A DNA stretch of 64,000 bases from Dehalococcoidia bacterium (GCA_965197585.1 OZ240215.1:2144001-2208000); one strand, 5' to 3'. Counted from the stretch's first letter, positions 32,479 to 41,054 are shown. The notes: generated by a model not told the origin, from the letters alone. Program-made: numbers and translations.

Positions 32479-34840
32479 TGCCGTTCACGTTGTCTTGTCC
32501 TCCACCGTTCTCCTGGGAATCAGTCGCGGGTTCCTTCTTCAGCAACGTATTTAGGTCGAATTCCTGGCTTCCTTCTTCCCCACCAAATCTGCGCTCTTCG
32601 ATATACGGCAGCACGCTATGTTTCCAAATACGTTCGACTGCAACCGTATCTAGCCCTTCTTTCATAAAGTAGCTCGGCCCTATGGCTGCGTGTCGGTCAT
32701 CCTTCAGCTTTTCGTTTACTTTCTCAACCGCGTCCGCGACCCACTCCATCCCCTCAGCGTTTTCTTGCAGCCACTTGCGCAGCACACTTCTTACAGGTTT
32801 ATGGTCTGGATGAAATTCCACAAAATAAAACCGTCGCCGCAGTGCCATGTCCACCAAAGCAATGGATCGGTCAGCAGTGTTCATAGTCCCGATGATGTAC
32901 AGATTCTTGGGAAGCCTGAACTCTCCGTCACTGTATTGGAGCGTTGCGGGCGCATCTCTGTATTCAAGGAGGAAATACAACTCTCCTAGCACCTTTGCTA
33001 AGTTTCCCCTATTGATTTCGTCAATGATTAGATAGTGTTTCTCATCCGAAACCCTCGCCTTCTCTGCAATTTCCAGCAATGGCCCATTCCTCAGTTTGTA
33101 TACGAGATTCCCATTCTCTATGCTCGGACGAAAACCCTGCACAAAGTCCTCGTAGGCATAGGAGGGATGAAACTGGACCAATGTGACCCGATCTCCCGAC
33201 CCGGCTAGGCACCCCGCTATCTTCTGTGCAATAAACGTCTTCCCCGTCCCCGGCGGCCCTTGGAAGATGACCTGCTTTTTCTCCTCAAGCAGCGTTTGGA
33301 TTTCCTCTAGGAAAGAGACGGGCAGGAAGGTCTGCTCAGCAAGGTCATCTAGAGTTGTAGAGCTTATGGGAGGCTGTGTGTCACTCTCATCTTCCGGCCG
33401 CTCAACTCGGCCTGTCACTATTGCCCAAGCCACAGATTGCGCGTCAAGCCGATGGCGTAAGTTAACCTTCCGTTTATTTCCTTCTTCAATAAACTGGTCC
33501 AGGAATCCAAGGGCATGTTCGTACAGCACCTCCTCACTGGCGTCCTTGTCTGGTTTGTCATACCCGACTTGCTCATAGGTTCTATTAAATATGTTGACTC
33601 TAAAGGGTGGATAGTGTTCTGCATTAAGCCCCATCAATAACACGGATACAACATTAATGCGCGTTCCAGTTCCACCTATTACTTCAGTTGGGAACCGTTG
33701 GCAAAAAGCGTGTATGCGATCTGAGACCGAAGTCTCCTCTTGTGCCCAAAGTGCCTCTAGAGCTTCTTGCACCGTAACAGGAGACTCATTAATCCAATCC
33801 TGTAACTTTGACAAAGTTACATAGTGTATTAGGTTATTGTCGCTGTTTGTGAGTGCTTGCTTCAACAATAGTGGCCAATCATCCGCTCCCCTAGACATAG
33901 CATCCCGCGCTACAGCTAATTTTCCGCCTATTGCAAGCTTATAATCTATCTCTTCCTCTTCCAATGTCCCTGCATCTATATACTCCTTGGCCAGTGTTAC
34001 AAACTTATCCCAAGTGTTGGCACTCACCTTCTTGCTGTCCCTCCACTTGTAGCTAATAGCGTCCTCGTAGAAGTGGAAATCCCTTCCTAATTTCTTCTCC
34101 AGACCTGCGCGAATTTGCTGCAATTTGCGATCTACATCATCTGTCGGTTGAGTGACTAGCGTACTAAAGGCGTCGGCAACTGCACTCTTGTGGTCTTCAC
34201 TGACAATGCCTTCAAACGTGTCAGGGTGGACTAGGTGAAGTAATGCTTGTCGTTGAATGCGTGACGCATTCTGATATTTGCTAACTAGCAGGCTGCGAGG
34301 TCTAAAATCCATCAGAAATCGTTTGAATTCCCACGGAGCATCTATTATGCGTACGAGTTCACTGGGATCCTCTTGTTTCAGGCGCTCCACAAACTCGATT
34401 AGGAGACCGACTTGAAATGGACGGAATGTGTGATACGCCGTTCCAGGAGTCGCTATTCCCGGAGTTAGAGCAGCAATAAGTTCCGTTGGGATCTCTACGG
34501 GTGATGTTGACCATCCGAGAACCGTTTCAATTACGTTTCTCTCATCCGTCACACTCTTGGTGTGCACTATTAGGAAGTAGAAGTAAAGGGCCTCTCCCAT
34601 GAGTTGGTATACCTCTGGTGGGCTGTTCTCTAACTGTTTTCCCAACTTGTCCAGAAAGCTCCCATCCGTTTCGTCCGGGCTGTTCAGGAACTTCTCGTGC
34701 AAGACACCCAAATTCCTTATCGTCCAAATTGCTTTTCCCGGCGTGAACAACGACCCCTCCGACCTCAGCGCGCAATCAACCCATTCCTGAGCCGCATCGT
34801 AGACCTTCTCTACACCGTTTCCAGCCCTCCTACTTCCCAT
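32459..34840 (-). CDS. mcrB: McrB family AAA+ GTPase with long N-terminal recognition region
   Basis: 'QGPPGTGKT', 'VQFHPSYAYEDFVQG', 'IIDEINRGN', 'IGTMNTADRSIALVD.ALRRRF'. Confidence 0.94.
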   Translation of the reverse strand: MGSRRAGNGVEKVYDAAQEWVDCALRSEGSLFTPGKAIWTIRNLGVLHEKFLNSPDETDGSFLDKLGKQLENSPPEVYQLMGEALYFYFLIVHTKSVTDERNVIETVLGWSTSPVEIPTELIAALTPGIATPGTAYHTFRPFQVGLLIEFVERLKQEDPSELVRIIDAPWEFKRFLMDFRPRSLLVSKYQNASRIQRQALLHLVHPDTFEGIVSEDHKSAVADAFSTLVTQPTDDVDRKLQQIRAGLEKKLGRDFHFYEDAISYKWRDSKKVSANTWDKFVTLAKEYIDAGTLEEEEIDYKLAIGGKLAVARDAMSRGADDWPLLLKQALTNSDNNLIHYVTLSKLQDWINESPVTVQEALEALWAQEETSVSDRIHAFCQRFPTEVIGGTGTRINVVSVLLMGLNAEHYPPFRVNIFNRTYEQVGYDKPDKDASEEVLYEHALGFLDQFIEEGNKRKVNLRHRLDAQSVAWAIVTGRVERPEDESDTQPPISSTTLDDLAEQTFLPVSFLEEIQTLLEEKKQVIFQGPPGTGKTFIAQKIAGCLAGSGDRVTLVQFHPSYAYEDFVQGFRPSIENGNLVYKLRNGPLLEIAEKARVSDEKHYLIIDEINRGNLAKVLGELYFLLEYRDAPATLQYSDGEFRLPKNLYIIGTMNTADRSIALVDMALRRRFYFVEFHPDHKPVRSVLRKWLQENAEGMEWVADAVEKVNEKLKDDRHAAIGPSYFMKEGLDTVAVERIWKHSVLPYIEERRFGGEEGSQEFDLNTLLKKEPATDSQENGGGQDNVNGNAQPES

Positions 34841-34916
34841 CGAGCCCCTCCTAGTCGATATGTTTCGGCCCCAATCTTACACCCTTTACACTCCTCCCCC
34901 ATCCACCCCCACCCCC

Positions 34917-34945
34917 TTGACCCATACAAACATATGTGCTATATT
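34917..34945 (+). promoter_or_regulatory. Sigma70-type promoter of structured element A, with LexA-box-like spacer
   Basis: TTGACC-17 nt-TATATT with extended TG; spacer contains AAAC-ATAT-GTGC. Confidence 0.65.
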
Positions 34946-34950
34946 CGCCA

Positions 34951-35716
34951 CAGTCTAGACCCGACACCCACCTTAAGGAGGAACCAAAACACCAGGGAAG
35001 CCCCCGAGACCCACCCGAGGACTCAACGCCCTAGCCCATCCCAACGGCCCTCGCGCAGGCCCGAGGCTCAAGCAACAGACGCCATCTCCTCTCACCAGGG
35101 TCCCGGCTATCCCTTCCAGCATCAGGCGATGGGAGGTTCCCGGCATCCATCCGGCTAGCCAGCTCCCTATCAGCGCCCCCGTCGGGGGGCAAACCTACAT
35201 AACCGGCATAGACCTTGCCGGCCAGTCCGAACAGTCGGAATAGCGCCGACTCAAAACCAACGCACCCTTTAGGGATTCCACCGTCGTCACCGCCGGCAAG
35301 CTCCGGTCTACAAACGGCGGTCTCGGGTCCCCGCTCCCATCCCTTGGGATGGTCGAGCACTTCTGGTGGACGGGACTGCCCCACACCGAGAATATCTCGG
35401 GTCCCGCCACATCCTCTCAGAAGTCAGTGGCAAGGATTCCACCGTCGTCACCATCGGCAAGCTCCGGTCTACGAACGGCGGTCTCGGGTCCCCGCTCCCA
35501 TCCCTTGGGATGGTCGAGCACTTCTGGTGTACGGGACTGCCCCACACCGAGAAATCCTCGGGTCTCGTCCACATCCTCTCAGAAGTCAGGGGCTGTCGCA
35601 GAGAAATAGTCGACCCAACGGGTATCGACACAGGCGTCCCCGCCATCCTGCGCAAACGTCCGGGAACCTCCATCGCCGACCCTCCAAAACAAACAAAACA
35701 AACCGAAACCCCACAA
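34951..35716 (+). ncRNA. Candidate large structured non-coding element, copy A
   Basis: Colinear conserved blocks shared with 40178-40809; 18-bp enclosing stem 35125-35143/35660-35677; no conserved ORF. Confidence 0.55.
35273..35589 (+). repeat. Tandem duplication of a ~155-nt structured unit
   Basis: 35273-35427 and 35434-35589 are near-identical, period 161 nt. Confidence 0.92.
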
Positions 35717-35785
35717 GTGAACACCATCCCCCATGTATAATCCCCAAGGTCGAAGATCCGCCTAGGGCGGAAGGAGCACCCGACC

Positions 35786-36895
35786 ATGCGAGAACATCCA
35801 CTAGTCGACGTCGACAGCCACGTCCTTGAACCCATGTCCGTCTGGCAGGACTACCTCGAACCCGACCTCAGGCCCCGCGCCATACGATGGTCCACCGACG
35901 ACAACGGCCGAGAGCTCATGCTCATCGATGGCAAGCCCGCACGCCAGTTCATGCTCCGCAACGGCTGGATGGGCAACCCCGAGGTCCCCGGCGGTCGTGC
36001 CTTCGAAGACCGCGTCACCACCTCCCTAGGCGCGGCCAACGGCCCCGACCGCGTCCAGCTCCTAGACAACGAGGGCATCGACATCACCCTCCTCTACCCC
36101 ACCCTCGGCATCCAGTGGGAGCCCGAGTTCGAGGACTACAAGCTCGCCGCCGCTCACGCCCGCGCCTACAACTCCTGGATCACCGACCTCTGCAAACCCC
36201 ACTCAGACCGTCTCATTCCCGTCGCCCACGTCGTCGCTTCCGACGTCGATGAAGGAGCGGCGGAGCTGGAGCGGGCCGCGGGGCTTGGCGCACGGGGCGG
36301 CATGGTCAGCGGCAGGCCCATCAACGGCATCCCCTACGGAGACCCCTACTATGACCCCCTCTGGGGGCAGGCATCGGAATCCCGCATCCCTCTCGCCCTT
36401 CACGTCATGGGCTACCCCAGACACCTCGGCTATGACATGTACCCGGACACCAGCCCCAAAATCGCCTGGTGGGGCTTCGTCACCCTCGGCCTGGAGGTCA
36501 TCATCGGCCTCACGACACTGTTCCAGGGAGCTGTCTTCGAAAGATTCCCGGACCTGCGCCTCGTCGTGCTGGAAGCCGGGTCGGGCTGGCTGCCCTACTG
36601 GCTCGACAGGATGGACGAATACACCGAGCTCTTCACCTACGCTACATCGCTATCGATGAAGCCGACCGAGTATTTCAAACGACAGTGCTGGATATCCTTC
36701 GAACCCAGCGAAGAAATGATGCCCGAGACCATGGACTTCATCGGCGTCGACAAATTCATGTGGGCCGCCGACTACCCCCACACCGACTCCGTCGCCGAAC
36801 CCGTACGCCTCCTCACCAAGATGCTCGCTCCCCTATCCCAGGAAGACCGATGGAAAGTCCTCGGCGACACCGCCGTCAAGCTCTACGGCCTCTAG
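35786..36895 (+). CDS. Amidohydrolase 2 family protein
   Basis: 'VDVDSHVLEP', 'LLYPT.G', 'YDPLW', 'LALH', 'LEAGSGWLP', 'MWAADYPH'. Confidence 0.9.
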   Translation: MREHPLVDVDSHVLEPMSVWQDYLEPDLRPRAIRWSTDDNGRELMLIDGKPARQFMLRNGWMGNPEVPGGRAFEDRVTTSLGAANGPDRVQLLDNEGIDITLLYPTLGIQWEPEFEDYKLAAAHARAYNSWITDLCKPHSDRLIPVAHVVASDVDEGAAELERAAGLGARGGMVSGRPINGIPYGDPYYDPLWGQASESRIPLALHVMGYPRHLGYDMYPDTSPKIAWWGFVTLGLEVIIGLTTLFQGAVFERFPDLRLVVLEAGSGWLPYWLDRMDEYTELFTYATSLSMKPTEYFKRQCWISFEPSEEMMPETMDFIGVDKFMWAADYPHTDSVAEPVRLLTKMLAPLSQEDRWKVLGDTAVKLYGL

Positions 36896-36954
36896 CCAAC
36901 CCTCCATGGGACCCCTTGCCCATTCCTTCTTCTGGCCCGCGGGGGTGGTCTTAT

Positions 36955-36999
36955 CCCCTCTCCCTCGATGGGAGAGGGCTAGGGTGAGGGTGAGGGTGA
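36955..36999. repeat. REP-like palindrome CCCTCTCCC-N5-GGGAGAGGG-ctagggtgaggg
   Basis: Intact copy of the palindrome family that hosts the MITE at 22340; related copies near 25627 and 60410. Confidence 0.7.
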
Positions 37000-37106
37000 T
37001 CCTAGTCCTCTTATTGCGAGCTATTGCAACAGCAACATGTCGCATGTATAATTCCCCCAAGGCTTAAACGCCACCATAGAAATCGGCGCAGAGAAAGGAA
37101 AACCCA

Positions 37107-37517
37107 ATGGTAAAGATCTACAACGTCCACAAAGCTATTGAAAACCTGACCCCCATAGTCAACCGAGGCGAGAATACCCCCGAAGAAGTAGTAGTCGCAG
37201 GCTTCGAGATTCTCGGCAGAGGTGACTTCCACGACGCGGCCATCAACCTCGGCACCTTCAACGGCGACGCCGGTTGGGAGAGGCATTCCCAGGGTGACGA
37301 GATCGTACACATCGTGGCCGGCGAGACCGCAATCCAGATGCTCGTGGACGGGGAACGGCAGACCATCCAAGTAAGCGCGGGCGACCTGCTGGTCGTGCCA
37401 CAGGGCACTTGGCATCGACTGCAGTCCGAAAAGGGAGTGACCGTCCTCACCGCAACCCCCGAGGGCCACGAAGACCACGCCTTCGTAGATGACCCAAGGA
37501 CCCTCTACCCCTGCTAA
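37107..37517 (+). CDS. Cupin domain protein
   Basis: 'WERHSQGDEIVHIVAGE', 'AGDLLVVPQGTWHR'. Confidence 0.85.
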   Translation: MVKIYNVHKAIENLTPIVNRGENTPEEVVVAGFEILGRGDFHDAAINLGTFNGDAGWERHSQGDEIVHIVAGETAIQMLVDGERQTIQVSAGDLLVVPQGTWHRLQSEKGVTVLTATPEGHEDHAFVDDPRTLYPC

Positions 37518-37544
37518 CGACGGTTGAGGATAGCAAATCTGATC

Positions 37545-37575
37545 GAGGGGCTGGCGCTTTTGCCAGCCCCTCTTC
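37545..37575 (+). terminator. Intrinsic terminator-like hairpin
   Basis: GAGGGGCTGGC-GCTTTT-GCCAGCCCCTC after the cupin stop. Confidence 0.6.
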
Positions 37576-37604
37576 ACTCACCCCCGTGCTACACTCCACT
37601 CCAC

Positions 37605-38348
37605 ATGTCCATCATCTTCCTCGCATGTATACTTGCGCTTATGACAGTTCTTTCAGCGTGCGGGGGTGAAGCCCCCGTCGAATGGGGCTACACCGGCCCC
37701 GGCGCCCCCGAGAACTGGGCCTCCCTCTCCCCCGACTTCGCAGCCTGCGCCAACGGCAAACAACAGTCCCCCATCGACATCACCGGCTACCAGGCAGGCG
37801 GCCCCGGCCCGATATCCTTCTCTTACACCACCGCCGAGACAACCCTCCGCAACGATGGCAGACAGGTCCACGTGGACTACGCCCCTGGCAACACTGCCAT
37901 GCTTGGGGGTCGTGCCTTTGAACTGAAGTCGGCGCACTTTCATTCGCCCTCGGAGCACTTGGTGGACGGCGAGAGCTTTGCCGCCGAGCTTCACATGGTC
38001 CACGCCGACTCCAACGGCCGCCTGGCAGTGGTCGGACTCCTGTTCACGCTTGGTGAGCCCAGCCCCGTGGCACAGTCGATTCTCGACGCCGCCCCACCCC
38101 CCGACGGAACCGCCAACGCCTTTATCCCGCTCGCCGACTCCCTCCCCACCGATTTCTCCTACTACCGCTACGACGGCTCCAAGACCACTCCCCCCTGCGA
38201 TGAGCCCGTCGACTGGCACGTCCTTCGCCAACACGTGATCATATCCCAAGAACAGGTGGAAGGTTTGCTTTCGCTTAGTGGCGGCCCCAATAACCGGCCC
38301 GTCCAGCCAGTCGGCGACCGCGTCATTACAATCGGCGGCGCGCCTTAG
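37605..38348 (+). CDS. Alpha-class carbonic anhydrase, lipoprotein
   Basis: 'LSAC' lipobox; 'WGYTG..APENW', 'QQSPIDI', Zn ligands 'HFHSPSEH' and 'ELHMVH', 'YDGSKTTPPCDE.V.W', 'NNRPVQP'. Confidence 0.93.
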   Translation: MSIIFLACILALMTVLSACGGEAPVEWGYTGPGAPENWASLSPDFAACANGKQQSPIDITGYQAGGPGPISFSYTTAETTLRNDGRQVHVDYAPGNTAMLGGRAFELKSAHFHSPSEHLVDGESFAAELHMVHADSNGRLAVVGLLFTLGEPSPVAQSILDAAPPPDGTANAFIPLADSLPTDFSYYRYDGSKTTPPCDEPVDWHVLRQHVIISQEQVEGLLSLSGGPNNRPVQPVGDRVITIGGAP

Positions 38349-38382
38349 TAAGGGGCTAAGAGAGTGGGGGTTGTACGACCCC

Positions 38383-39552
38383 CTACGGAATCACGTTGCC
38401 GGCAATAAGAGTGCTGGCTGCGGCAAACATGCCACCCGGCCCGTGAGCGATCCCGACCTTGGCGTCCTTCACCTGCCGCTCACCGCATTCTCCTCTAAGC
38501 TGACGCGTCAGCTCGATCAGCGTGAATATCCCGTACATCCCGGAGTGGGTGTAGGACAGGCCGCCGCCGTTGGTGTTCATCGGGAACTCGCCGCCCGGGG
38601 CAGTCCTCTGCCCCTCGACGAAAGGCCCGCTCTCCCCAGGCCCGACAAAGCCCAGGTCCTCCAGCGCCAGCATCGGGGTGAAGGAGAACGCGTCGTACAG
38701 CTCTGCAACATCAATGTCCGAGTGCTTCACCCCGGCCATCTCAAACGCCGCCTTCCCTGACTTCCGTGCGCAGTCCGAGGTCGTCATGTCCCTCATCATG
38801 CTCACCCGCTCGTGGGATACCGCCTCACCCGTCCCGAGAACGTAGACCGGCTTGTGCTTCAGGTCCTTGGCCCGGTCCGCGGTGGTGAGCACTATCGCTC
38901 CTCCTGCATCGGTGACAAGGCAGCACATTAGCAGCGTGAAGGGCCAGCAGATCATGCGGGCATCCATCACGTCCTGGATGGTGATTGGGTCCTTCATCCG
39001 GGCCTTGGGATGCATCATTGCCCACTTCCGTGTCGCCACCGACACCTCCGCCAGCTGCTCCCGCGTCGTGCCGTACTTGTGCATGTGCCGGGTCACGGGT
39101 ATCGAGAAGGTGGTCGTCGGCCCAAACGTCCCGAACGGGTCTTCGAACTGGCCGTTGTGAGTCGCGCTTTCATCTGCGAAACCGGGCAGGCCCATGCGGG
39201 AGCGGCCGCTTTCGCCGTGACTGATGACAGCCGTGTTGATCAGGCCCGCGCTCAGGGCCAGCATCGCGTGCTCCACGTGCATGATGAAGGAGCACCCCCC
39301 GACAATCGTGCTGTCCGCGTACCGGGGCACGACACCTAGGTACTCGCACAGGTCGTTCACCGTCGTCTCCGGCGAGCCCCCGGCCATGAACAGCCCATCC
39401 ACGTCGCCCAGGCCCAGGCCCGCGTCATCGAGGGCGTTTCGTATCGACTCGGCATGCAGCGTGAGCACCGACTTATCGGGCAGTTTGCCCATCTCGTCAG
39501 ACTCGGACGCTCCGACTATGGCGACCTTACCGCGCAAATCTTTCGGGGCCAT
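38383..39552 (-). CDS. Thiolase-like protein (SCP-x/Ltp type)
   Basis: 'VGGCS', 'CCLVTDAGGA', 'AELYDAFS', 'MNTNGGGLSYTH.G', 'QLRGECGERQV'. Confidence 0.92.
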   Translation of the reverse strand: MAPKDLRGKVAIVGASESDEMGKLPDKSVLTLHAESIRNALDDAGLGLGDVDGLFMAGGSPETTVNDLCEYLGVVPRYADSTIVGGCSFIMHVEHAMLALSAGLINTAVISHGESGRSRMGLPGFADESATHNGQFEDPFGTFGPTTTFSIPVTRHMHKYGTTREQLAEVSVATRKWAMMHPKARMKDPITIQDVMDARMICWPFTLLMCCLVTDAGGAIVLTTADRAKDLKHKPVYVLGTGEAVSHERVSMMRDMTTSDCARKSGKAAFEMAGVKHSDIDVAELYDAFSFTPMLALEDLGFVGPGESGPFVEGQRTAPGGEFPMNTNGGGLSYTHSGMYGIFTLIELTRQLRGECGERQVKDAKVGIAHGPGGMFAAASTLIAGNVIP

Positions 39553-39579
39553 TTCAGTCTCCTTATAGCGTCAAAAGGC

Positions 39580-40008
39580 TCATGCGGGCCGGAACTGCGG
39601 CAGCGTCACTTCGCCGGTCACGTCCAGGTAGGCGATCTCGACGGCCATGTCGCAGTGCACCTTATCAGGGTCGGCATCGATGTCGATGAGATTGCTCATC
39701 ATCCGCGGCCCCTCTTCCAACTCAACTACCGCTATGACGTAGGGGTCGGGCCCGAACCCCGGGGCCGGCCTGTGGTTTATCACAAACGAGTAGAGGGTTC
39801 CCTTTCCGCTCGCCTCGAACCACTCCACGTTCTTCGAAAAGCAGAGGGGGCAGAAGGGCCGGGGATAGAAATACGCCTTATCGCAGTCAGTGCAGCGCTG
39901 GATGAGGAGCTTGTGCTCCCTTAGCGCGTCCCAATAGGGCTGGGTCTCGGGGGTTGGTGAGGGCAGGGGACGATTAGTATCCGCCAATGGGGCCACCTCC
40001 CTGGGCAT
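39580..40008 (-). CDS. Zn-ribbon/OB-fold protein (DUF35, ChsH2-like)
   Basis: 'IQRCTDC...FYPR.FCPLC', 'ASGKGTLYSF', 'VELEEGPRMMSN'; usual partner of the thiolase-like gene. Confidence 0.92.
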   Translation of the reverse strand: MPREVAPLADTNRPLPSPTPETQPYWDALREHKLLIQRCTDCDKAYFYPRPFCPLCFSKNVEWFEASGKGTLYSFVINHRPAPGFGPDPYVIAVVELEEGPRMMSNLIDIDADPDKVHCDMAVEIAYLDVTGEVTLPQFRPA

Positions 40009-40177
40009 CCGTTGGGAATTCCGACGCCGCCTATCCTATCGCCCACCCGTTCCCGGTGTCAATCTGATGTACTCGTCCGGTAGGTCAGTGACACACTGGA
40101 GTTTTCTTCAGTCCTCCTGAGGCGGATCCTCCAGAGGCGGATGTTCCCCGCCTACGACGGACTTGCAGCATCTTCGA

Positions 40178-40809
40178 TTGTGGGGTTTGGGTTTCCGTTC
40201 TGTCTGTTGGGTTTTGGGTTGACGATGGAAGACGCTTGCCGGATTCGGCTCCCTATTTTTAGATAATGCGAGCTTGGAGGCGTCCCGGGAACGTGGGGAC
40301 GGGGCTCCGCCGCCGCCTAGACCTGGAAGTATGATAGGACATACGGGTCCGTCATCCGTCATAGGCTCCAATAAGGGTTGGCTGCGCTGTCCGCCGGAGG
40401 CGGATGCAGGAAGGGGAAAGTCCAGGGTCAGTTCCCCTCGCAGGAGTACGGGGTATCCGGTTCGCCGCCTGTATCCAGGAACCCGGAGTGGCGGGCGGCC
40501 CAGTTTCATTTGATGAAGCGGACGGAGAGCCGAGCGGTCCTCGGCTACGGGCTGCCCCGTTCCGCTCCATAGGTCGGGTTGCTCCGTGAGGAGACTTTTA
40601 TGTACGGTCCAGGGCGTCTTCCATCGCCTGATGGTCAGGGTAAGGGATAGCCGGGGGCCCTTGGCAGAGGAGATGGCGGCGTTCGCTTGTGCCGTGGGGC
40701 GGCGTGTAGGCCGCCCTTTGGGATGGGCTTGGACGTTGAGTCCTCGGGGGCCGGGTGGGCTTCCCTGGGTTGTGGTTACCTCCTTAAGGTGGGTGTCGGG
40801 TCTAGACTG
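40178..40809 (-). ncRNA. Candidate large structured non-coding element, copy B
   Basis: First 31 nt identical to copy A; shared downstream blocks; 15-bp enclosing stem 40614-40628/40221-40235; same A/C-rich tail ending CCCCACAA. Confidence 0.55.
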
Positions 40810-40814
40810 GCCCA

Positions 40815-40843
40815 ATAATAGAACATGTGTCTTATGAAGTCAA
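40815..40843 (-). promoter_or_regulatory. Sigma70-type promoter of structured element B, with LexA-box-like spacer
   Basis: TTGACT-17 nt-TATTAT; spacer contains AGAC-ACAT-GTTC(T). Confidence 0.65.
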
Positions 40844-40955
40844 GGGGTGGATGTCACACTTTTGGGGGGGGCACCGCCCCGGCCCTTCCGGGGAACCCTC
40901 ACCCCCTTGGTCCCCCTCTCCCTTAGGGCCTTCAAGGGAGAGGGGGAGATAAGAA

Positions 40956-40996
40956 TAGAGGCCCATGTGCGTGCAGAGCACGCACATGGGCCTCTA
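40956..40996. repeat. Perfect 19-bp-arm inverted repeat
   Basis: TAGAGGCCCATGTGCGTGC-AGA-GCACGCACATGGGCCTCTA. Confidence 0.85.
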
Positions 40997-41054
40997 ATTC
41001 AGTACTGGGGAGAGGGGAGGGATGGATTCCGGCTCGGGGTGGGAATGAGGGTAG

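Follow-up and report, generated by a model that had tools for sequence, protein, structure and literature searches.

Candidate non-autonomous transposable elements with a predicted long non-coding RNA gene as cargo, located beside promoters in one genus of Dehalococcoidia

Miniature inverted-repeat transposable elements (MITEs) are up to a few hundred base pairs long, and mobile insertion cassettes (MICs) carry protein genes. The Correia repeat enclosed elements of Neisseria, about 100-160 bp long and folding as one hairpin, carry promoters and end up in transcripts. Among the orphan large RNAs of bacteria, HEARO also rides on mobile DNA. Here we describe an element of which two copies, A (+ strand) and B (- strand), lie between positions 34917 and 40843 of a 64,000-nt stretch of DNA from a Dehalococcoidia bacterium (GCA_965197585.1, OZ240215.1:2144001-2208000; this whole stretch is called the window, and its numbering is used throughout). 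We consider it probable that the copies are non-autonomous DNA transposable elements, ~0.75-0.95 kb long, whose cargo is a promoter with a predicted long non-coding RNA gene instead of a protein gene. In the literature searched, no description of the element was found.

The initial annotation of the window spoke of two copies, a number that proved far too low: in the 3.43-Mb single-contig genome (G000) BLASTN with the 195-nt 5' part as query detected 57, and a covariance model of the 5' domain 58. A search for closing-stem 5' arms with AAGGAGG upstream gave 62, one variant with a minimal 5' domain included. The plan of the element is highly constant. A consensus promoter of the sigma-70 type (TTGAY, 16-18 nt, TAnnnT) and an exact AAGGAGG are present in 57/57 copies, the latter 29-36 nt past the -10 box in 55 of them. 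The C-rich 5' domain that follows contains blocks (AAGGAGG, GAGGACTCAACG, GCCCATCCCAA, CAAGC, GCCATCTCCTC and CAGGCGATGG) which are invariant in 47 aligned sequences from nine genomes, while the neighbouring columns vary. Next comes a long closing helix around a hairpin-rich interior domain of 300-530 nt; a script located the partner arm 325-530 nt downstream in 55/57 copies, and the remaining two stems (copy A and one copy with a 1-nt insertion in the 5' arm) were read by eye. The 3' arm is followed by a tail composed of 43% A, 43% C, 8% G and 6% T, and then by one of two post-tail forms, i.e. a variable module with a conserved 27-nt end, or a short CTGAATAA form. The idea of a swappable interior needs correction: interiors do differ, but they are not arbitrary, since they fall into 13 recurrent classes with sub-modules in common.

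Several variations on this plan were observed. Three leader subfamilies can be told apart by a short palindrome at the predicted start (GTCTAGAC, GTTCGAAC or GACTGGCCAGTC-like), which occupies the first ~12 nt after the -10 box (34952-34961 and 40799-40808 in the window); the shorter of these palindromes may be protein-binding sites, because they are too short for RNA hairpins. The ~90-nt 5' module GAGGACTCAACG...GCCATCTCCTC is duplicated in tandem in one G008 copy (L039) and absent from a 'mini' copy, G000:C1:3315490-3316210. Two distant cousins (G000:C1:683860-684282 and 1591084-1591479) have a similar closing stem and a C-rich tail, together with a different 5' region that has GCCTCCTCCC in place of AAGGAGG. 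We also considered that the closing stem with its interior might be an independent inner MITE. This was unsupported: the arms co-occur with the shell, barring chance gene matches, a separate GGGGATGGAAGGTCCCGG repeat and the two cousins.

The tips of the mobile unit can be recognised on both sides. The inverted ends are imperfect and ~27 nt long (TGATCCCGTTC...GTGACA on the left, TGTCAC...GAACGAGTACA on the right), and when their consensus sequences are read from the tips, 18/28 positions are alike, with one 1-nt gap. One subfamily begins with TGATCCCGTTCACATAGAGGGGTGACAT, followed by 7 nt and then by the element's own -35 box, and many copies terminate in GTGTCACTAAYCTACCGAACGAGTACA. Right ends numbered 28 and left ends 16 among the genome copies, with 15 pairs; the two ends of a pair are separated by 711-1075 bp, save for one pair with a spacing of 2045 bp, which results from the insertion of an insertion sequence (IS). 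In the copies with both ends, the unit is flanked on either side by 5-bp direct repeats (6 bp with the tip placed one base inward), e.g. CCCCC, CAGGG or GAGGC; the flank-repeat score was 4.2 for true pairs versus 1.12 +/- 0.40 for mismatched ones, with a maximum of 2.6 in 500 shuffles. No transposase was found inside the element, which contains no conserved frame and nothing similar to the IS481-like gene described below.

Comparison of orthologous loci revealed filled as well as empty sites, in keeping with the mobile element envisaged in the initial annotation. The copy B locus is filled in the genomes G002, G003 and G005 and empty in G001 and G007. Both empty sites keep the ChsH2-like gene and its promoter, and homology resumes at CAGATTGACACC, just past the copy B right-end repeat. 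At the copy A locus, G002 and G003 carry an element of another subfamily, BLASTN found no element in G001 or G005, and G007 has a weak interior-like match only. Two further sites are empty in G000 itself: one carries an element in G007, upstream of a tRNA gene, and the other is filled in G008. The unit therefore has the inverted ends, target duplication, absence of a transposase and filled and empty sites by which MITEs and MICs are recognised; with its 711-1075 bp it is larger than a MITE in the strict sense. An orphan left end was also noticed (G000:C1:3404961-3405000), immediately ahead of the groES promoter (TTGCGA...TTAAAAT) with its CIRCE operator; its register matches that at the element's own promoter.

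The family appears to be confined to one genus, at least within the samples of genomes searched, for which the range given here holds. BLASTN produced matches in 9/41 genomes, which are all nine of the genus, and in 0/32 from other genera. At the family level the covariance model matched 9/12 genomes, again all nine of the genus, with 23-69 matches each, and 0/3 from other genera. In a class-wide sample it matched 6/151 genomes, all of this genus, and the element was not found in the 145 genomes of other genera. In total, the nine species of the genus contain ~420 copies.

The position of the right end relative to host promoters is precise. Of the 28 right ends, 24 have their best TTGACA-like hexamer beginning 5 nt past the last base of the element. 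The match to TTGACA is at least 4/6 in 19/28 right ends (background 3.1%) and at least 5/6 in 14/28 (background 0.4%), and a TAnnnT motif lies 16-18 nt beyond the -35-like hexamer in 20/28. The 5 bp that separate the tip from the host -35 box are the duplicated bases. This box is the host's own, because the empty site in G001 has it. Moreover, the host promoter beside copy B is still conserved (100% and 90% identity), which fits element transcripts that end before the host promoter and do not replace it. The genes downstream of the elements are unrelated to each other: they include tRNA genes, apparent starts of aminoacyl-tRNA synthetase genes, an amidohydrolase gene, the ChsH2-like and thiolase-like genes, and others.

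This arrangement could suggest a very long 5' leader of the downstream gene, similar to a riboswitch or an attenuator. A co-oriented open reading frame (ORF) comes first downstream in 20/27 right-end copies, a rough count based on a crude ORF score that mis-calls some loci (one tRNA-flanked and one aminoacyl-tRNA synthetase-flanked copy were scored as having an opposite-strand ORF first), and AAGGAGG could pair with a conserved CUCCUC block. However, between the element and the gene there is a separate host promoter, which G001 has even in the absence of the element and which is still conserved, the downstream genes are unrelated, and no Rfam leader or riboswitch matched. In addition, 3/3 checked copies lacking the right end face the 3' end of a convergent gene (encoding NAD synthase, a luciferase-like monooxygenase and a DUF6295 protein), so that the RNA cannot in general be the leader of a downstream gene. 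We regard this explanation as very improbable.

To judge the rate of change of the different segments, orthologous copies were compared with the 3rd codon positions of flanking genes. In four pairs (copy B versus G002, copy B versus G003, a third pair G000 versus G002 and a fourth pair G000 versus G005) the identities were, respectively, 94.1%, 91.0%, 95.8% and 96.3% for the interior, 94.1%, 92.2%, 93.3% and 94.7% for the promoter, 94.6%, 85.9%, 87.3% and 83.9% for the 5' domain, and 74.2%, 71.1%, 94.0% and 69.2% for the right end with the post-tail part, against 78.7% / 77.6%, 77.7% / 74.8%, 82.3% / 82.1% and 95.5% / 86.9% for 3rd positions. Across these four pairs the interior and the promoter are slower to change than synonymous sites. 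For the 5' domain, taken as a whole, such a difference is not clear, and the right end with the post-tail module of copy B changes at about the synonymous rate.

It is plausible that the conserved part specifies a structured RNA, and the support for this is mixed. Copy B has a better fold than its shuffles on the promoter strand (z-score -3.9) and not on the opposite strand (-0.25). The inner arms of the closing stem vary by class with complementarity kept, and deviations from it are G-U in ~18 copies and A-C in 3. A hairpin of the 5' domain, located after CCCAUCCCAA, has stems that differ among copies, each of them self-complementary. In the interior, a small covariance model gathered 82 loci of a helix that we call beta (CCGUCGU/GCGACGG); its pairing reaches 98.8% over 25 distinct sequences, UA, UG and CG variants occur at one position, and both sides change in 2/7 of its pairs.

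As to expression, nine metatranscriptome runs contain 5-9% of the words sampled from the 6-kb stretch. Contigs from 4/4 RNA libraries examined cover parts of both copies, and in two runs the summed depth over the copy B 5' domain is higher than over the neighbouring genes. None of the contigs extends from the element into the downstream gene, which is neutral either way. A scan of the region identified no intrinsic terminator on the RNA strand. The genome encodes Rho, and also RNase J (TIGR00649, 565 bits, above the cut-off).

A number of observations weigh against our interpretation. Both ends are kept in only 15/57 copies, and the right end is missing in 29. Covariation is seen in the closing stem and in one helix, and is otherwise sparse: of the predicted pairs, RNAalifold found covariation in 0/22 of the 5' domain and in only 2/147 of class 1. 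The alignment of helix beta had been fitted to the model, and its scores are attained in 16-21 of 500 shuffles. The initial annotation reported that stem mismatches read as G-U pairs only on the promoter strand; this stands for the closing stem but not for the predicted helices overall, where no strand asymmetry exists (266 G-U versus 323 A-C cells in Watson-Crick-defined helices; 82 versus 63 in a stricter set of 62 helices, of which 19 lean each way). The contigs of the RNA libraries represent multi-copy sequence, carry no information on strand, start, end or level, and may include DNA. Furthermore, the interior classes differ between species at 2/5 orthologous filled loci, and an interior from G005 shares 99.8% identity with a G000 copy that lies at another locus. 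Since interiors are exchanged between loci and species, gene conversion and gene flow may inflate the interior identities given above.

Many of these points are shared by an explanation in terms of DNA only, i.e. a promoter-carrying MITE-like element whose interior consists of nested palindromic REP-like (repetitive extragenic palindromic) repeats, whose RNA has no function of its own, and whose conservation reflects recent spread, gene conversion and gene flow. Balanced G-U and A-C deviations are expected of DNA palindromes or of neutral change, the scarcity of covarying pairs and the swapping of interior classes (in one case at near identity across species) agree with it, and the REP-like hairpin GTCATTCC...GGAATCC occurs inside class-0 interiors as well as outside the elements. 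It accounts less well for the retention of the promoter and the exact AAGGAGG in every copy, even in those that have lost one or both inverted ends, or for the fact that the invariant blocks of the 5' domain, which lie beside variable columns, are not palindromic. The interior, moreover, is 91-96% identical between orthologues versus 69-74% for the right end in 3/4 pairs, and both the closing stem and helix beta admit G-U far more than A-C. We consider the DNA-only explanation unlikely, if by no means negligible.

The same conservation might instead be explained by domestication, the 40-70 dispersed copies being genes for a host-beneficial trans-acting RNA (a protein-binding scaffold or a sponge) and the mobile ends their vehicle only. 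All copies have the promoter and the RNA part, even where the ends have decayed, and this RNA part is better conserved than synonymous sites. The number of ~90-nt 5' modules varies from 0 to 2 per element, as might be expected of binding modules, and the checked right-end-less copies, each facing a convergent gene, cannot act on a downstream gene. The candidate partners CsrA and Hfq, however, were not found in the genome (a CsrA or Hfq sponge was rejected for this reason), the family is restricted to one genus among those searched, and the evidence for RNA structure is mixed. Precise homing to promoters is, besides, a property of an element and not of an RNA gene. Domestication appears rather unlikely to us, and a transposable element with an RNA gene as cargo remains the reading that we prefer.

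A protein-coding gene with an unusual start would require a frame through the element. In copy B such a frame of 235 codons is open (ORF 40108-40815, - strand), and a frame spans the whole element in 8/57 copies. The other 49/57 have stops in every frame. There is no codon-phase bias in the substitutions (96/90/100 in class 0 and 48/46/47 in class 1), most indel runs are not multiples of three (118/126 in class 1 and 293/325 in class 0), and the copy B frame would start within the -10 box. Protein coding was therefore rejected, and we give it next to no credence. A leader peptide (MEHPPLED...) in the post-tail module was likewise dismissed on inspection by eye, the ATG being missing in many copies and a 22-nt insertion shifting the frame in copy B. 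A 438-aa rve gene located within the left end of one copy is an unrelated IS insertion.

Nor does the element belong to any Rfam family, in agreement with the initial annotation, which had recognised no known RNA class. Rfam gave 0 matches at the gathering score in the whole window, and a scan of 34800-41000 at E-values up to 10 returned weak, chance-level matches only; for 15 loci representing all 13 interior classes, the single match was a microRNA model on a flanking hairpin. Known families (OLE, ROOL, GOLLD, HEARO, raiA, riboswitches and leaders) were rejected, as none of their covariance models matched. A retroelement (retron, group II intron or SINE-like) was rejected too, because the genome has 0 matches to the reverse transcriptase domain PF00078; an RNA copy would in any case lack the promoter, which lies upstream of the predicted start. 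A guide RNA of TnpB (the IS200/IS605 omega-RNA) was set aside, since no TnpB-type domain was found in the genome (IscB was not separately searched for). Finally, the genome has nine IS110-family transposase matches (e.g. G000:C1:1396256-1396699), of which two lie directly upstream of an element, co-oriented with it and beside the same REP-like hairpin. A link with IS110 and its bridge RNA was rejected, given that the shared IS unit stops short of the element and only 2/9 adjoin one. With no Rfam match and no conserved frame on the one hand, and inverted ends, duplications and presence/absence differences on the other, both halves of the original proposal, an undescribed large non-coding RNA family or a non-autonomous mobile element, apply.

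The source of the transposase may be a resident IS. In G000 there are ~21 copies of a 1.06-1.1-kb IS, most of them 96-99% identical (e.g. G000:C1:1223046-1224005, L073). Its terminal repeats begin TGTAAGTGTTAGG...TTGACAGA, and it makes a 5-bp duplication (ATTCC) within the REP-like hairpin GTCATTCC...GGAATGAC. The right-end consensus of the element agrees with the left terminal repeat of the IS at 18/28 ungapped positions, and an agreement of 17 or more positions has a frequency of 3.5e-5 among random genomic 28-mers. Other observations speak against this link. The best match of the 320-aa transposase, the NCBIfam IS481 model, scores 184 bits, below the 224-bit cut-off. An IS481-like transposase is present at E <= 1e-30 in only 5/9 genomes of the genus, one copy being broken, and G004-G007 have no such transposase, yet contain 41-69 elements each. 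Moreover, the IS targets the REP-like hairpin and not promoters. Away from their ends, the IS and the element show no similarity. A TGACA target motif common to both was considered and dropped as speculation only, because the offsets differ by 2 nt. We put the chances that the element is mobilised in trans by this IS481-like IS, or by a relative of it, at roughly even.

The preferred reading, an RNA gene carried by a transposable element, can be set out as a sequence of steps, most of them putative. An IS481-family transposase would move the unit in trans, as may be supposed from the 18/28 end positions and the common 5-bp duplication length. The unit lands 5 bp upstream of a -35 box. The promoter of the element would then direct the synthesis of a 0.65-0.8-kb RNA. 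By analogy with the STAB-SD sequences considered below, AAGGAGG, which lies ~25 nt into the predicted transcript, could bind a 30S subunit that shields the 5' end from RNase J. Rho loading needs unstructured, C-rich, G-poor RNA; by a further analogy, Rho might load on the unstructured C-rich tail and halt transcription ahead of the adjacent host promoter. Insertions would be tolerated because Rho would stop transcription before it reaches that promoter, which fits the fact that the host promoter is intact. Selection would hold the RNA part, and our best guess is that this part serves the persistence of the element at promoters rather than the downstream gene.

A bolder version of this reading gives the RNA a task of its own. 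It might be a selected working cargo that acts at the landing site as a 'promoter companion', its transcript originating a few hundred base pairs ahead of the host -35 box and altering the use of the promoter by RNA polymerase, Rho or a transposase-derived DNA-binding protein, or it might help to choose the promoter targets, as in an RNA-assisted DDE transposon. We think either form distinctly unlikely.

The features of the two loci are listed in Table 1. Most of what the initial annotation had reported for them was borne out. Each copy has a promoter of the TTGAC-N17-TATWWT type that agrees with 10/12 consensus positions in a promoter scan, and the region contains 5 promoter-like sites versus 1.7 +/- 1.1 in shuffles. 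The identical 31-nt head was found at two places in the window and nowhere else, both with 0 mismatches, against 0.00 expected from 100 shuffles. At start-codon distance after AAGGAGG there is indeed no ATG, GTG or TTG. The pairwise alignment of copies A and B is near-continuous over ~225 columns, includes all of the blocks that had been named, and diverges thereafter. The arms of the closing stems are as first described and enclose 516 and 378 nt, and both A/C-rich tails finish with ...AAACCCCACAA.

Table 1. Features of copies A and B and of the host promoter adjoining copy B (positions in the window)
Feature	Position	Strand	Basis
Copy A promoter P1, TTGACC-17-TATATT, TG ahead of -10	34917..34945	+	promoter scan, 10/12
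Copy A leader head, ends in AAGGAGG (34975-34981), no start codon thereafter	34951..34981	+	
Copy A conserved 5' domain, blocks GAGGACTCAACG, GCCCATCCCAA, CAAGC, GCCATCTCCTC	34982..35124	+	alignments
Copy A closing stem 5' arm, partner 35660-35677	35125..35143	+	sequence reading
Copy A interior domain, singleton class, 516 nt	35144..35659	+	
Copy A closing stem 3' arm	35660..35677	+	
Copy A tail, A/C-rich, G-poor	35678..35716	+	
Host promoter TTGACA-18-TAGGAT of the ChsH2-like/thiolase-like genes, present without the element in G001	40033..40062	-	10/12 consensus
5 bp separating the copy B tip from the host -35; place of the flanking duplication in copies with both ends	40063..40067	-	
Copy B right-end inverted repeat GTGTCAC...GAGTACA, right tip of the mobile unit	40068..40094	-	
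Copy B variable post-tail module: TCGAAGAT, small hairpin, CCGCCTCNGGAGGA repeats, CTGAAGAAAA	40095..40177	-	
Copy B tail, A/C-rich, G-poor	40178..40220	-	
Copy B closing stem 3' arm	40221..40235	-	
Copy B interior domain, class 1 (10 members in the genome), 378 nt	40236..40613	-	
Copy B closing stem 5' arm	40614..40628	-	
Copy B conserved 5' domain	40629..40778	-	alignments
Copy B leader head, ends in AAGGAGG (40779-40785)	40779..40809	-	
Copy B promoter P1, TTGACT-17-TATTAT	40815..40843	-	promoter scan, 10/12

The interior of copy A contains a 161-nt tandem duplication (35273-35593). The right-end repeat is not recognisable in this copy, and an Amidohydro_2 gene starts at 35786, beyond its tail. 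In copy B, a GTGACA box at 40852-40857 precedes the promoter.

Between and around the two copies, other features of the region were noted. Just past the amidohydrolase gene there is a 41-nt REP-like hairpin-plus-tail unit (36953-36993; CCCCTCTCCC...GGGAGAGGG, then CTAGGGTGAGGGTGA), which reaches a summed depth of up to 26,459 in contigs of 4/4 RNA libraries examined, with many different flanks; relatives of this unit sit upstream of many elements. Between copies A and B, at 37524-38345 (+), a gene encodes a protein whose carbonic anhydrase domain is of the eukaryotic type (PF00194, 118 bits). Upstream of the copy B promoter, a terminator-like 19-pair hairpin with a T-rich run is located at 40956-40996 (-). 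It gave the only Rfam-scan matches of the region, which were to microRNA models and arose by chance.

If our interpretation is true, a genus of uncultured Dehalococcoidia harbours ~420 copies of a promoter-homing transposable element, which would be a natural tool for studying the recognition of promoters by bacterial transposition. It would also mean that a strongly promoted RNA of 0.65-0.8 kb has been spread as cargo and kept better than the ends of the element that carries it. The family offers a large test set for functional RNA genes on mobile elements and is a candidate for a new class of large bacterial RNA. In practical terms, a consensus promoter has been placed upstream of dozens of unrelated genes, and the elements merit masking or annotation in these genomes.

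As a mobile unit, the element is closest to MITEs and MICs. It resembles them in its inverted ends, short flanking duplications, lack of a transposase, many copies and differences between species; a resident IS has similar ends, but occurs in only 5/9 genomes of the genus and has another target. Unlike typical MITEs it is ~0.75-0.95 kb long, and in contrast to MICs its cargo is a promoter with a predicted long non-coding RNA. It differs from both in its fixed position 5 bp from -35 boxes and in having a core that is better kept than its ends. Correia elements share with it a dispersed intergenic location, inverted ends and promoter elements; it is, however, five to eight times longer, and has a complete, inward-pointing internal promoter and a conserved non-palindromic 5' domain. 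With the IS481 family it has in common tips that start with TGT/TGA, the 18/28 terminal-repeat positions and the 5-bp duplication, whereas it has neither a transposase nor internal similarity to the IS, which inserts in the REP-like hairpin and is missing from 4/9 element-bearing genomes.

The RNA part has counterparts of another kind. The orphan large RNAs (OLE, ROOL, GOLLD, HEARO and raiA) are likewise several hundred nucleotides long, promoter-driven and hairpin-rich. The element differs from them in that it has no Rfam match, in that its genome has no TnpB-type gene (with the limit on IscB given above), and in having inverted ends, duplicated flanks and tens of copies in a genome. Its leader recalls the STAB-SD (stabilising Shine-Dalgarno sequence) of Bacillus thuringiensis cry3A, where a bound 30S subunit blocks RNase J1 (PMC4113751). 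As in that system, a strong Shine-Dalgarno-like sequence without a translation start lies near the predicted 5' end, and the organism has RNase J. STAB-SD is situated in the leader of a protein gene, while the motif of the element heads a predicted non-coding RNA, for which a stabilising role may be proposed by analogy.

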